Counted from the first letter of the stretch, positions 620 through 5,805 are shown. The stretch is DNA of 64,000 bases from Promethearchaeota archaeon (GCA_030599585.1 JAUVNS010000003.1:224001-288000), one strand, 5' to 3'. The notes: generated by a model not told the origin, from the letters alone. Translations and numbers: made by a program.

Positions 620-1600
620 ATGAATGAAAGGAATTTTCAACTATTTTTAGAAGAGAATGAAGTTGATACCGATACAATAGAAAACTTTCTTTCAAAGCTG
701 AGAGACTATGAAAACTTTCTCAATAAAGAAAACTTAAATCTCGACTCTGTAAATCCTAAAAAACTAGTTGAGTATACTGAATACTTGGTGTCTACTAATA
801 AAGAGTCTGTTCTTGATTTTTTAAGAGCTATCTTGAGTTATGCTAATTATTCGAAGAAGTATGATTTTATTACCGAAACTATTGATATTGTTGAATCTTA
901 TAACGCAATGGATAACTTGTTCTCAAGAATTGCTGAAATTCATGGAGAGCAAATGAGGGACAAAATTTTTAGAGATTTAAATATCCCTCTATTAGGAGTG
1001 CATCCTGAAAAAAAACCGAGTTTTACCAAAAACATTATGAGAAGATTGGAGGATAATCTTGGATATGAAGACACAATCGCACTTCTTTCGCCTTGTCTCC
1101 ATGGTCGTCCCCCTGATGATATTAAAGGAGATAAAAAAAACCTTGCGGAATTGGGAATTGATGGATTTTTACTCAAAAAACACAAGGATTTAATAAAAAG
1201 GCTTGAGAAGCATAAAGACGAAGGAACTCTAGAGTTTGCCCAGCTCGTGGATGATGAAGTAATCGAATTTGTAAGAAATAACCAAATGTTCGTAGGAGTA
1301 AGAAAAGAAAATATCATTTATACTAGCAAAGTCCCCTATCAAACTAAGAAATTTTTAACAGTCAAGGATGAAAACATGAAGAAATTTTATCTTTGTTACT
1401 GTCCTTGGATTCGAAGTGCTTTGAAAGAGGAAGCTGATAACGAAATCTTAAAAAAGTTCTGTCACTGTAGTGCAGGTTGGTACAAACTGTATTGGGATCA
1501 GATTTTTGAGCAATCCATATTGGTAGAACCCATTAAAACGGGTTTAAATGGAGATCTTGAATGCACATTTGCAATCCATTTACCCGCAGATATCAAATGA
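620..1600 (+). CDS. Hypothetical protein with Cys-rich C-terminal domain (DUF6144/V4R-like)
   Basis: 326 aa; motifs PCLHG, LCYCPW, FCHCSAGW, ECTFAI; helical N-terminus. Confidence 0.5.
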   Translation: MNERNFQLFLEENEVDTDTIENFLSKLRDYENFLNKENLNLDSVNPKKLVEYTEYLVSTNKESVLDFLRAILSYANYSKKYDFITETIDIVESYNAMDNLFSRIAEIHGEQMRDKIFRDLNIPLLGVHPEKKPSFTKNIMRRLEDNLGYEDTIALLSPCLHGRPPDDIKGDKKNLAELGIDGFLLKKHKDLIKRLEKHKDEGTLEFAQLVDDEVIEFVRNNQMFVGVRKENIIYTSKVPYQTKKFLTVKDENMKKFYLCYCPWIRSALKEEADNEILKKFCHCSAGWYKLYWDQIFEQSILVEPIKTGLNGDLECTFAIHLPADIK

Positions 1601-1653
1601 AAGTAAGTAGGCCTATTAACTCTCTTCTTTAAGGAAATTATTAATTTATTAAT

Positions 1654-2469
1654 CTAGCTTTTTGAAAATCCCCCATGATGGAATTCAATTTTATAAATAA
1701 GTTTCAACTTTTTGCAATAAGCATCTATTTCTGATTCAATAGAATCCCATTGAGAATGATCTTTCCTGAATTCTTTATACATGGGTAAAAATTCAGGATT
1801 TGATTGCTTTATAATGTTTAAAATTCTTGGAATATTATGTGGTCTGAAGTTTAAATTTTCAAACATATATGAATCTGTATAATCCATCGTTTCTTCTATG
1901 ATCGCTTTGTAATTAGTAATTTTTGGAAAAAATGGTGAAATAAAGGTATATGTTTTTATTCCGCTTTCGTGTATTTCTTTTAATGCTTCTAATCGTTCTT
2001 TTGGCCTTGAAGCTCCTCGTTCAATCAATCGAGCGAAATCGTTATCTAAGGTGCTGATTGAAATACCTACTTCAAGATTTTCAAATTTTTTAAAAAGATC
2101 AATATCTCTTATAACAAATTTAGATTTTGTCAAAATTGAGATTTCTGCTTTGGTTCCTACAAGGTTTTCAAGAATTTTGCGCGTATTTTTATACTTTAAC
2201 TCTAAAGGAGTGTAGGGATCAGTTACAGAGCTAAGTAATATTCTCTTTCCATCGTATCTTTGCGGTTTAATTTTATCAAATTCGTAGGTTTTGACATCCA
2301 AGAATTCGCCCCATTTATCACCTTTGTGCCCCGTAAACCTTATCATGAATTCAGCATAGCAGTAAATACACCCATGTTGGCAACCAACGTAAGGATTAAT
2401 AACAAAATCAATTTTGGGGATGTTACTCTTGGTAATTATGTTCTTAGCTTCTCGATAATTTATATTCAT
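1654..2469 (-). CDS. Radical SAM protein, spore photoproduct lyase (SplB)-like
   Basis: INPYVGCQHGCIYCYA (CxxxCxxC), SSVTDPY, ILTKS. Confidence 0.85.
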   Translation of the reverse strand: MNINYREAKNIITKSNIPKIDFVINPYVGCQHGCIYCYAEFMIRFTGHKGDKWGEFLDVKTYEFDKIKPQRYDGKRILLSSVTDPYTPLELKYKNTRKILENLVGTKAEISILTKSKFVIRDIDLFKKFENLEVGISISTLDNDFARLIERGASRPKERLEALKEIHESGIKTYTFISPFFPKITNYKAIIEETMDYTDSYMFENLNFRPHNIPRILNIIKQSNPEFLPMYKEFRKDHSQWDSIESEIDAYCKKLKLIYKIEFHHGGFSKS

Positions 2470-2585
2470 ACTATTGAAATAAGATAATGTAAATTAAATT
2501 GAATATCTTAGTTAACTATTTTTTTTAAGATAAATCTATTATATGCTTAAAATTAATATACATAAAAAATTAGACTAGGATTTTT

Positions 2586-2780
2586 ATGCCATTAAAATTA
2601 TTTGAAAATGATAGAACCAACAAAATCGTCCTCTATATTATTCTAACAGCGTTAATAGCTACTTCGGCTATATTGGTCTCTGTACTAGTAATATATTTAA
2701 TCTCACTTGAAGAAACCGGAGGAGGATGACCGAGTACATGCAGTATCTACATAAATTTAGTTTTAAGAACAATTTTATGA
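2586..2780 (+). CDS. Candidate small single-TM selenoprotein (64 aa if UGA48 = Sec; 47 aa if stop)
   Basis: MPLKLFENDRTNKIVLYIILTALIATSAILVSVLVIYLISLEETGGG-TGA(2727-2729)-PSTCSIYINLVLRTIL-TGA. AGGA lies 5 nt upstream of the ATG; SECIS-like hairpin directly downstream. Confidence 0.7.
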
Positions 2781-2840
2781 AAAGAATGACTTTTGCGAAA
2801 AAATTTTAGTCGCAAGACGACTTGCCCTGCAAGGGTTCAT
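2777..2840 (+). promoter_or_regulatory. SECIS-like kink-turn hairpin (eukaryote/Loki type)
   Basis: AUGA at 2786-2789; stem UUUUGCGA (2791-2798) pairs with UCGCAAGA (2810-2817); A-rich loop; GA at 2819-2820; lower helices AAG/CUU and AUGAA/UUCAU. Confidence 0.7.
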
Positions 2841-2966
2841 AAAAAATAATGCTAATAATATCTTATATAATATGTAGTATTTATTTTATTCAACTATTAA
2901 TTAACATAACTCTTATAAGAGTTTAAAACCTCTTTATCACACAAATTTGAATAGCTGTGCTTTATA

Positions 2967-3770
2967 ATGTCGAAAGAAACTCCCGATAATGTTAAAAATT
3001 CTTTACGCGCAATAGGATTGACCGACTATGAGATCTCTATATATCTCACTTTAATTTCTAAAGGACCTATGGATGCAAGGGAGCTCTCAGATGCATCGGG
3101 TGTTCCCTATTCTCGAATATACAATATTTTAACTCAATTAGAAAAGGAAAAAATGTTCATTCTCAGAGAAGAAAATACTCGTCCGTCGACTTATTTTGCA
3201 AAGAGTCCTGATGAAGTGCTAATTATTGCAAAGAAACAACTTAACGATAATTTTGATAAACACTCAAACAAAATCATCCACATGCTCAAACCTGTTTACG
3301 AATCTCATGACACTCCCATAAAAATTGCTTTATATGTTCACCGAGGACGTGACGTATGTATCGGTCGTAGTATAGATTTAATCCATCGGGCTAAGAATTC
3401 TCTTTACTTCGTTGCTCCCTATTATGAATTTTTGGAAGTATTTTATGAAGATGTTAAAAAAGCAAGAGCTAGAGGGGTTATTGATATAAAAATGCTTATT
3501 GAAGAAGAAGCAATGAAAGAAAAAAATTTTAGAGACATAATCGAAAAATATAGCGAAATCTCTGAAATTCGCTCTCGCAATCAAGTATTTGGAGCAAGCG
3601 TAGTAATGGATGAAGGAGAAGACGCTTTTATTATACTGACACAAGGTTTTTTCAAAGCATTAAGCTATTTCGGTGTAGCTACTGATCATATCGCCTTTGG
3701 ACCCGCAAGCAACTTTTATTTCGACTATTTATATAAATCAGCAAAACCACTTAAAAATACGAAGAAATAA
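2967..3770 (+). CDS. TrmB-family transcriptional regulator
   Basis: GLTDYEISIYLTL...ARELSDASGVPYSRIYNILTQL winged HTH plus C-terminal effector domain. Confidence 0.9.
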   Translation: MSKETPDNVKNSLRAIGLTDYEISIYLTLISKGPMDARELSDASGVPYSRIYNILTQLEKEKMFILREENTRPSTYFAKSPDEVLIIAKKQLNDNFDKHSNKIIHMLKPVYESHDTPIKIALYVHRGRDVCIGRSIDLIHRAKNSLYFVAPYYEFLEVFYEDVKKARARGVIDIKMLIEEEAMKEKNFRDIIEKYSEISEIRSRNQVFGASVVMDEGEDAFIILTQGFFKALSYFGVATDHIAFGPASNFYFDYLYKSAKPLKNTKK

Positions 3771-3795
3771 CAAATTCACTTGATTTACCGTCTTA

Positions 3796-5805
3796 TTAAT
3801 TCTCTTTTCCGTTAAAAACAGGGATAATTATATGTGATGGGTGATCCTTATCGTGATATATTGTTTGGGTGGCGATTTGGTATTTCATTTGATTTTTTTT
3901 CCCAGCAAGATTAGAATTAACATCAAATCTTGGAAAATTACTTGAAGTAATCTCTAACCGTATTTTATGATTCTTTGGAAAGAAAATAGCAATGGATCCG
4001 ATTACAATTTCGAATTTATAAATCTTATTAGGGTTAACTAATTCAGGTGCGTCCAAATTACCGCTACGATAACGTGTTCTAATTCCAGAGTCAATTAAAT
4101 TTATAGATTTTTTATTGTTTGGGTAAACATCGACTAATTTAACCATAAAATCAGTATCTTCTACGGTAGTTGAAGCGTAAAATATTATTTTTACCTCTCC
4201 AATTATTTCCAAACCTTTTTCAAGGGCATTAGTGGTGAAAATTAGAATATCTTCACCTCTTTCAATATCAGTCTGATCTTGAGGGCCACTCAATAAGAAT
4301 AAATTTCTTCCCCCTTTAGTAATCACTGGATTGGAAGGGTCAAATAGGTATTGATCTGGTGGTTCTTCTTTAGGTCTGTTTTTAGAAAGAAAACCATCTC
4401 CGTTTAAGCTATTACTCTTTCCATTTGAGTGAAGAAATAACTTTACATCAGTTGAAGTCGGAGGCCATTTATAGAATTCTCTCCAAATATCCTTGTTTAA
4501 TATATATATCTGTAATGGAGGAATTTCAGATAAAAGCGATTGGTCCCCTTTTAAACAACAATCGTACCACCAGAAAGGGAGGATTTTTTGGAAGAACCTA
4601 AAATCGTCTTTTAAATGAGTATATTTCAATGGCTTTGAAAAAAACTTATCCATATTTATATGACTCCACGGGCCAATAATCATTTTAAACTTTTCTCTGA
4701 AAAAATCTGGAGCGTTTTGTTGTATTAACACAACATCTCGCATCATGTGCTCAATGAACATGTCATACCACCCCCCTATAAATAACATGGGTGTCTTTAA
4801 TTCATAGTTGAGTCCAAAAGCGTATGGAGATAGGTCGTAGTTGTGAAAGATATTCCTTTTATAGAACATTTCCTTTATCAGTTTTGTAAACGATCCATCA
4901 TCCATCCTTGAAACATCGACATCTGTTTTATACACTCTATTCATCATTTTAATCGAGTATTTGGGCTTATCGAAATTTGCCATATCTGACAACTTTGGCT
5001 TTTTAGAGTCTAAAGGTTCGTTATAAAAACTATTAGAAGGATTGAAAAAGAGTTGTTTGTAGTATCCATCCTTATCCCATTTGTCAAAATCCATCGTGGT
5101 TAATTTTTTCATTTTCGCAGTAGAAATCATTATTAAATATATAGCTCCTGATAACCCAACAGGATATAAGCCGCCAGGGTGCCAAAATACATTGGAATAA
5201 GAGCTATGGATAGGATTTAAACAAGCCAGTAAATTATCATTATCCCAAGATACGGCTAGTTGAGTTATTCCTAAATACGATAATCCCCACATTCCTATTT
5301 TCTTATTATACCAAAAGCGACGAGTGATCCATCGTAGTGTTTCGATTCCATCTTGGCGTTCATACATATATAGTGAATTAGTACCATACTTACTTGATTG
5401 CCCGCAGCCTCGAATATCTTGAATCACAGCGACATACCCTTTAGAGGCGATAAAATATCCTAAAATGCTTAGACTATCTTTCCAATAAGGTAGTCTTACT
5501 AGAATAGTCGGCCCCCTTCCTTTTTTTTTGTAAAGTTCTTTAGGTATGTAAATATCTGTGGCTAATTTTCCTCCATCTTCAAGCTCTATCAAAGCTTCTT
5601 TTAGTCTAATAGAACTAGTTTCTGGTAAAAAATTGACATTTTGGAGTCTTTTTGATCGCCCAATTACTTCAAAAATTTTAAATAGTGGAGAATAAATATA
5701 ATCCACAAGAAATGCCATGCGAATAAATATAGAACTTAAAGGGTCTAGAATTGTCGGTAATTTCAAACCGATCTTTATCTCTTTAGGATTAAACTTTCTT
5801 TTCAT
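3796..5805 (-). CDS. CocE/NonD-family serine hydrolase (peptidase S15)
   Basis: RLPY, QDIRGCGQS, nucleophile motif GLSYLG, GGWYD, IGPWSH, ITSSNFPRFD. Confidence 0.9.
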   Translation of the reverse strand: MKRKFNPKEIKIGLKLPTILDPLSSIFIRMAFLVDYIYSPLFKIFEVIGRSKRLQNVNFLPETSSIRLKEALIELEDGGKLATDIYIPKELYKKKGRGPTILVRLPYWKDSLSILGYFIASKGYVAVIQDIRGCGQSSKYGTNSLYMYERQDGIETLRWITRRFWYNKKIGMWGLSYLGITQLAVSWDNDNLLACLNPIHSSYSNVFWHPGGLYPVGLSGAIYLIMISTAKMKKLTTMDFDKWDKDGYYKQLFFNPSNSFYNEPLDSKKPKLSDMANFDKPKYSIKMMNRVYKTDVDVSRMDDGSFTKLIKEMFYKRNIFHNYDLSPYAFGLNYELKTPMLFIGGWYDMFIEHMMRDVVLIQQNAPDFFREKFKMIIGPWSHINMDKFFSKPLKYTHLKDDFRFFQKILPFWWYDCCLKGDQSLLSEIPPLQIYILNKDIWREFYKWPPTSTDVKLFLHSNGKSNSLNGDGFLSKNRPKEEPPDQYLFDPSNPVITKGGRNLFLLSGPQDQTDIERGEDILIFTTNALEKGLEIIGEVKIIFYASTTVEDTDFMVKLVDVYPNNKKSINLIDSGIRTRYRSGNLDAPELVNPNKIYKFEIVIGSIAIFFPKNHKIRLEITSSNFPRFDVNSNLAGKKNQMKYQIATQTIYHDKDHPSHIIIPVFNGKEN

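Follow-up and report, generated by a model that had tools for sequence, protein, structure and literature searches.

Seven selenoprotein families have been described in Asgard archaea, all of them found by homology to known families (Huang 2024, PMC11227280), and a 2026 review gives 11 families for archaea (PMC13188914). There are no membrane proteins among the Asgard or archaeal families of either account (PMC11227280, PMC13188914). In Lokiarchaeal type I genes, i.e. PrxL, VhuU and HdrA-VhuD (PMC4989117, PMC11227280), the recoding signal is the lokiSECIS, located a few nt past the stop codon. The lokiSECIS is defined by an AUGA followed by a 9-bp stem, a GA after the stem, and a loop of 11 nt in which the first five bases are mostly A and the final G is preceded by A; a rule has also been proposed according to which a UGA that lies too close to the element escapes recoding (Mariotti 2016, PMC4989117).

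Three other groups of selenoproteins are of use for comparison. SelK and SelS (PF10961, PF06936) are short proteins that cross the membrane once and have a Gly-rich stretch immediately ahead of Sec; Sec is found among the final 2-3 residues, downstream of a cytosolic segment that is Gly-rich and disordered. In the thioredoxin-fold UxxC/CxxU selenoproteins (Asgard PrxL, DsbA-like proteins), Sec has a resolving Cys as its partner a few residues off. Thioredoxin reductase carries a flexible C-terminal Gly-Cys-Sec-Gly redox tail.

The locus presented here belongs to a 64,000-nucleotide stretch of DNA of a Promethearchaeota archaeon, referred to below as the window. Positions 2586-2780 of the window very probably constitute a stand-alone selenoprotein gene, decoded by means of a lokiSECIS, for a 64-residue single-pass membrane protein with a putative redox centre. 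As in the known lokiSECIS genes, the recoding signal is found a few nt past the stop, and a UGA is tolerated as stop beside it. The differences concern the product, which is a membrane protein of 50-80 residues and not a soluble enzyme, the lack of any Cys form among the sequences searched, and the UGA-to-SECIS distance, which is 43-60 nt in most members compared to well over 200 nt for the Sec codons read in PrxL and VhuD. None of the 11 archaeal families listed is related to the protein (PMC13188914), and a full-text literature search found no Lokiarchaeal transmembrane selenoprotein. The family would be the twelfth archaeal selenoprotein family, the first that is membrane-anchored and the first microprotein, and one without a Cys form.

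Conservation of the in-frame UGA and of the reading frame

The reading frame is on the strand shown, starts with the ATG at 2586 and extends to 2780 when its terminal stop is included. An AGGA at 2577-2580, 5 nt upstream of the ATG, is a possible ribosome-binding site; it is kept only in the closest relatives and is missing from more distant homologues, and this role is uncertain. Codons 1-47 (2586-2726) specify a basic N-terminus (residues 1-13), a transmembrane helix (residues 14-41, a hydrophobic stretch of 28 residues) and the linker E-E-T-G-G-G. The UGA that would be read as selenocysteine, residue 48, is at 2727-2729, directly after GGA GGA GGA, and is followed by CCG AGT ACA TGC and 12 further sense codons. 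Codons 49-64 (2730-2777) give P-S-T-C and a hydrophobic tail of 12 residues, and the true stop codon, also a UGA, is at 2778-2780, 5 nt ahead of the SECIS core. The readthrough product thus has 64 residues, with the motif G-G-G-U-P-S-T-C, Sec48 and Cys52, and 16 residues after Sec. The reading frame, the AGGA, the charged N-terminus, the hydrophobic helix and the GGA GGA GGA TGA reported in a first-pass annotation of this DNA were all found where it had placed them. Its description of the motif as UxxC has to be corrected: three residues separate U from C in U-P-S-T-C, which makes it UxxxC, and the relatives have UxC, UxxxC or UC. A candidate ORF in the +2 frame, opening with the ATG at 2738 behind GGAGGAGGA, was rejected; that ATG is missing from diverged homologues.

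Homologues were collected by a six-frame search of 61 related genomes, using the readthrough protein as query, and by a profile search over 161 genomes of the class. The six-frame search gave about 20 clear homologues from the same genus, each with one in-frame TGA and with a match extending past it. According to the profile search, the ORF is present in 36 of the 41 genomes of the genus, and in several further genera of its family there are weaker matches that contain the TGA. From a second family of the order, represented by 14 genomes, one weak match was obtained, restricted to the helix. Homologues were found in one Lokiarchaeial family only, and not convincingly in the other families searched. 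The codon at the Sec position is TGA in all 45 tabulated homologues (TAA, TAG and Cys codons: 0), and it is still kept in several genera where identity falls to about 16-25%. Alignment A5 (42 sequences, mean column identity 32%) has a single invariant column, that of Sec, and the Gly residues at -3 and -2 from Sec are nearly invariant. A common plan is found throughout the 45 homologues: a Lys/Arg-rich N-terminus, one helix, a short polar linker of about 6-12 residues, usually Gly-rich, and the TGA. A Cys follows at +1, +2 or +4 from Sec in 42 of them (U-C, U-x-C, U-P-x-x-C), and the UxxC spacing never occurs; the forms without a nearby Cys are one homologue with U-P-G-A and those ending in U-G-stop. 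Both TGT and TGC encode this downstream Cys, and third-position variation is seen in the Gly codons that precede Sec.

Immediately 3' of the Sec UGA, 27 of the 45 homologues have C and 14 have G (genome G+C content, 33%). This bias may come from the following Pro, Leu, Gly or Ala codon, or from a context preference of recoding.

Past the TGA, none of the homologues has a stop in frame 0, and stops do occur in frames +1 and +2. The pN/pS values of this part range from 0.58 to 1.53 and are no better than those of the off-frames; they are uninformative here because the transmembrane part likewise shows no discrimination. The tail after the Cys is poorly conserved and its length varies from 1 to about 35 residues in complete homologues; in one genus a single residue follows Sec, the protein ending in U-G or U-C. 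Of the coding conservation past the TGA that the first-pass annotation had looked to, the Cys and the open frame stand in nearly all homologues, and the post-Cys tail does not. Alternation of TGA with TGY at codon 48, also put forward there, does not occur: searches of 5.8 billion clustered proteins, 1.84 billion representatives and the 161 genomes of the class gave no Cys form. Such a lack of Cys-containing homologues is unusual for selenoprotein families, in which these homologues are common but not obligatory.

Public proteins of the family are almost only 47-residue hypothetical proteins from Lokiarchaeota/Promethearchaeota MAGs and marine-sediment metagenomes, and nearly all of the 75 protein clusters retrieved end at residue 47. 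The longer public entries that were examined carry W at the Sec site and come from gene calls on short contigs in which TGA is translated as W. Eight such entries (P0002-P0005, P0011, P0084, P0092 and P0096) have 65-105 residues, in the style of code 4, and some calls of this type also run through the true UGA stop and the SECIS. Public annotation cuts the protein at the UGA, so that searches starting from the SECIS may reveal more hidden Asgard selenoproteins.

In almost all public records the gene callers close the protein at residue 47, as expected of an ordinary stop. On this reading the gene would yield a membrane peptide of 47 residues with GGG at its C-terminus, and the hairpin downstream would be a kink-turn hairpin with another job: binding of an L7Ae-type protein, stabilization of the mRNA, or control of the downstream TrmB gene. 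The weak conservation beyond the Cys, where pN/pS does not help, also goes in this direction. We nevertheless regard this explanation as very unlikely. An ordinary stop is expected to drift to TAA, which closes 70% of the long ORFs of this genome compared to 12.6% for TGA, and would not stay TGA in every lineage, as it does in 45 of 45 homologues; a Cys conserved just past the TGA is not expected either. The hairpin itself and its neighbours, considered below, bear on the same point.

The lokiSECIS hairpin and its distance from the UGA codons

The region after the reading frame contains a lokiSECIS (Asgard type I eSECIS-like element) at 2783-2822 on the same strand, recognized by its features, by a covariance model and by covariation. 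It is composed of AUGA at 2786-2789, an unpaired C at 2790, a helix of 8 bp formed by 2791-2798 with 2810-2817, a loop of 11 nt at 2799-2809 (AAAAAUUUUAG, with AAAAA first and AG last), an unpaired C at 2818, and GA at 2819-2820. The AUGA starts 59 nt past the Sec UGA and 5 nt past the true stop. All published lokiSECIS features are present in this hairpin, and they are retained among the homologues. AUGA and GA, which make up the kink-turn core, are invariant in 20/20 and 30/30 aligned homologues. The stem corresponds to 8 base pairs plus one non-canonical position, where in most cases two pyrimidines face each other. In the set of 20 aligned homologues the loop begins with (A/G)-(A/U)-A-A-A and ends with A-G; one sequence of the wider set of 30 has a U-G end instead. 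Pairing in the helix reaches 99.4%, and three of its eight pairs show compensatory changes (G-C to A-U, C-G to U-A, A-U to G-C). RNAalifold, applied to 30 sequences, agrees with this helix and gives 5 compensatory pairs out of 11.

A covariance model (R1) was built from 20 hairpins of the family alone and run on the whole 4.85-Mb genome. The window hairpin was found with 66.4 bits (E = 3e-11). There were three other matches at E<0.02, each of them 15-20 nt past the stop of a selenoprotein gene: VhuD (2 in-frame UGA, beside an HdrA with 3), a second HdrA (2 UGA) and PrxL (U-x-x-C). A model that finds the SECIS of VhuD, HdrA and PrxL, and nothing else at this threshold, argues against a hairpin with another job behind an ordinary stop. 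At 30 further homologue loci R1 recovers the hairpin in 26 cases; in the other 4, all from one genus, a lokiSECIS with a different helix sequence was seen by eye. No SECIS family was matched by an Rfam scan of positions 1500-4500 at E<=10, as expected since existing SECIS models miss lokiSECIS (Mariotti 2016). The fold of 2727-2860 taken singly does not stand out from shuffled sequences (z = -0.75): tests on one sequence stay at chance level here, and it is the comparative evidence that rises above it. The AUGA...AA...GA hairpin that the first-pass annotation had proposed 59 nt past the UGA is thus present, co-conserved with the reading frame and covarying. Together with the conservation of the TGA, this covariation supports its idea of an undescribed archaeal membrane selenoprotein with a eukaryote-like 3' SECIS, and the TAA or TAG at codon 48 that it had named as contrary evidence was not seen in any of the 45 homologues.

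The distance from the Sec UGA to the AUGA is 51-60 nt within the genus and 43-47 or 95-121 nt across genera, the minimum among the homologues tabulated being 43 nt. The true stop is located, within the genus, from -4 to +19 nt relative to the AUGA. All 13 terminal stops that are TGA lie within -4 to +5 nt of the AUGA, and the stops further upstream are all TAA. This pattern of terminal stops fits the proximity rule of Mariotti et al. The family would provide natural bounds for the action of a lokiSECIS: a UGA would mean Sec from 43 nt upstream of the core, and would be tolerated as stop only within about 5 nt of it. At some loci (in the family-wide set L010-L090) the terminal stop is the UGA of the AUGA itself.

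A second small hairpin (GCCC / UGCAA loop / GGGU) is located at 2824-2836 on the same strand, directly 3' of the SECIS, and is kept in homologues, those of other genera included. A similar G+C-rich hairpin was seen by eye after the SECIS of VhuD, HdrA, PrxL and both SelD genes of the genome (G000:C24 just beyond 310379 on the minus strand, C20 after 389190, C26 after 110547, C34:191386-191460 and C34:188479-188560). It often has the form A-C-C-C / Y-G-C-A-A loop / G-G-G-U and is found within a few nt of the SECIS. No description of it was found in the SECIS literature compared; it could be a part of the functional element or a 3'-end signal. A lower helix or three-way junction around the SECIS, which seemed possible in the window, was not retained, as RNAalifold predicts two hairpins only from the 30 sequences.

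Selenocysteine machinery and gene neighbourhood

The contig that carries the gene also carries two SelD genes, about 33-36 kb before the window (G000:C34:187468-188479 and 190381-191386). In each, the G-U-x-C-K active site contains an in-frame UGA, and the SECIS is of type II and has a mini-stem. The two genes are about 3 kb apart, and a lower helix enclosing the SECIS together with the side hairpin could be formed by their flanks, GAUGUC and GGCAUC. SelD and SepSecS score above the cut-off (473 bits for SepSecS). A candidate EFSec (231.7 bits) is located about 4 kb from SepSecS and a candidate PSTK was found with 154.9 bits, both scores being below cut-offs tuned on bacteria or Methanococcus. 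tRNA-Sec was not found in the assembly with Rfam RF01852, ARAGORN or a custom descriptor. The matches to RF01852 are tRNA-Leu-like only, with 30 bits or less. ARAGORN reported 18 tRNAs without its intron mode and 22 with it, and one implausible "tRNA-SeC" with an intron of 1245 nt. An intron-containing tRNA-Ser(GGA) lies in the region around EFSec and SepSecS. In the published Loki tRNA-Sec, the T-loop is interrupted by a 31-nt intron (Mariotti 2016). We treat the absence of tRNA-Sec as a detection gap, because such an intron is not modelled by the tools and so few tRNAs were found overall. Of the components that the first-pass annotation had named, the two SelD, SepSecS and the EFSec and PSTK candidates were thus recovered, and tRNA-Sec was not.

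Many tRNA genes of this genome bear introns, e.g. the tRNA-Ser(GGA) with an intron of 20 nt; tRNA loci noted include G000:C28:27647-27746, C8:200928-201046, C3:36982-37099 and others. For this MAG, inferences on completeness or on the genetic code that are based on tRNAs need intron-aware tools.

The five members of the genus without the ORF all have SepSecS, so that co-absence is uninformative. The contamination estimate of the assembly is 8.9%; the contig of the gene carries SelD as noted, and the gene recurs across the genus.

The TrmB gene downstream of the SECIS is conserved in this position only within the genus. In other genera the neighbours are PGK, a hydrolase, a gelsolin-domain gene or, in two, an ARMT1-like gene, and no conserved gene partner emerges from the neighbourhoods compared. 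The pair formed by the ORF and the hairpin persists in these other settings, which goes against a hairpin that would control TrmB behind an ordinary stop. TrmB itself is without an in-frame TGA. For these two reasons, i.e. no in-frame TGA and no link to the ORF-hairpin pair outside the genus, a SECIS serving TrmB was also rejected.

In one other genus (L093:4618-5211, minus strand) the small selenoprotein gene adjoins a gene for a gelsolin-repeat protein, and in another genus, two genomes have a gene for an ARMT1-like damage-control phosphatase immediately downstream, in the same orientation. The spacer between the SECIS and TrmB (2840-2966) is strongly conserved within the genus. At the position of ATAATATGTAGTAT in the window, one subgroup has a direct repeat made of two copies of TAGTATGAAA, and the spacer may contain the TrmB promoter and an autoregulation operator.

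Predicted protein and proposed function

All homologues have a hydrophobic stretch of 20-30 residues, i.e. a single N-terminal transmembrane helix, and the protein matches no Pfam family. An AF2 model of the readthrough protein, with the 42-sequence alignment as input, predicts a long helix from residue 9 to residue 44, for which the block-mean pLDDT reaches up to 90, and places G-G-G-U-P-S in a loop after it. A short helix at 51-63, of low confidence, begins at Thr51, one residue ahead of the Cys. Lys and Arg together amount on average to 4.3 residues in the N-terminal flank of the homologues, compared to 0.16 in the 15 residues past the helix. Given this bias, the positive-inside rule predicts a cytoplasmic N-terminus and a Sec/Cys pair outside the cell, at the outer membrane face.

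The events that we propose are as follows. The ribosome would meet the UGA at codon 48, and the lokiSECIS, 59 nt downstream in the 3' UTR, would direct the archaeal Sec elongation factor with Sec-tRNA(Sec) to this codon, where selenocysteine would be inserted. Translation would continue for 16 codons up to the second UGA which, at 5 nt from the SECIS core, would be too close for recoding and would act as the stop. With the basic N-terminus in the cytoplasm, the flexible Gly-Gly-Gly tether would present Sec48 and Cys52 on the outer side of the membrane, and the pair would most likely cycle between selenol/thiol and selenenylsulfide. The most likely function would be that of a membrane-tethered redox centre, for thiol-disulfide or for peroxide/polysulfide exchange; possibly the pair is a centre that binds soft metals.

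In thioredoxin reductase, too, a flexible tail flanked by Gly carries a Sec and a nearby Cys that can form a selenenylsulfide; in the present family, one genus has a vicinal U-C at the very end. The protein studied here differs by the lack of a flavoprotein domain, by the order of the residues (Sec, then Cys, with 0-3 residues between) and by the attachment of the tail to a membrane helix. With the thioredoxin-fold selenoproteins it has in common a Sec paired with a Cys a few residues away, the spacings UxC and UxxxC being different from theirs. A thioredoxin fold is impossible for this protein, because it has 64 residues and two predicted helices.

With SelK and SelS the protein shares a layout made of a single helix, a Gly-rich segment and a Sec near the C-terminus. 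In one genus the likeness is closer, the protein ending in P-P-P-N-G-G-G-U-G-stop; SelS has the C-terminus G-G-U-G, which resembles these forms. True homology to the SelK/SelS family, or an ancestral position of the archaeal protein, is nevertheless very improbable. The Pfam HMMs SelK_SelG and Selenoprotein_S match neither the locus nor 20 members of the family at E<=10, and a genome-wide six-frame search with both HMMs gave no match at the locus. The predicted orientation is the opposite one: the charge bias puts Sec outside the cell, and SelK and SelS carry it on the cytosolic side. The linker is also much shorter (about 6-12 residues vs about 50), and in the window protein 16 residues follow Sec, compared to the very end of the chain in SelK and SelS. 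In addition, the family was found in one Lokiarchaeial family only, with no convincing members in the others searched, and a short Gly-Sec motif can easily arise twice. The likeness to SelK/SelS is therefore one of layout and not of membership. The first-pass annotation had offered both an architectural analogue and a possible precursor of SelK/SelS; the former holds as a resemblance of layout only, a limit that it had itself pointed out, and the latter found no support in the HMM searches or in the charge bias. It is accordingly doubtful in the extreme that the family is the prokaryotic root of SelK/SelS, i.e. that Asgard archaea already possessed a single helix with a Gly-rich tether ending in Gly-Gly-Sec, decoded through a eukaryote-like SECIS, and that the protein was later inverted in the membrane and lengthened in eukaryotes. 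We keep this reading open because of the one genus with forms ending in G-G-G-U-G-stop. The family raises a testable question, namely whether small membrane selenoproteins predated eukaryotes.

The basic N-terminal region followed by a hydrophobic stretch, together with a C-terminal part predicted to be outside, would also be compatible with a signal peptide whose cleavage releases a secreted selenopeptide of about 20 residues. A membrane anchor is by far the better explanation, and a cleaved signal peptide seems highly improbable. The hydrophobic stretch, with its 20-30 residues, has the length of a membrane span, compared to about 7-15 residues for the core of signal peptides. No conserved small-x-small cleavage motif was seen in the alignment, and the mature peptide of one genus would be only about 10 residues long.

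Finally, it is scarcely credible that the ORF is untranslated and that the region ahead of TrmB is a conserved leader or RNA element without coding function: the intergenic DNA around the ORF is also well conserved within the genus, but the basic N-terminus, helix and Gly linker persist at 16-25% identity with a conserved start, and they do so in genera without a conserved TrmB or conserved flanking DNA.
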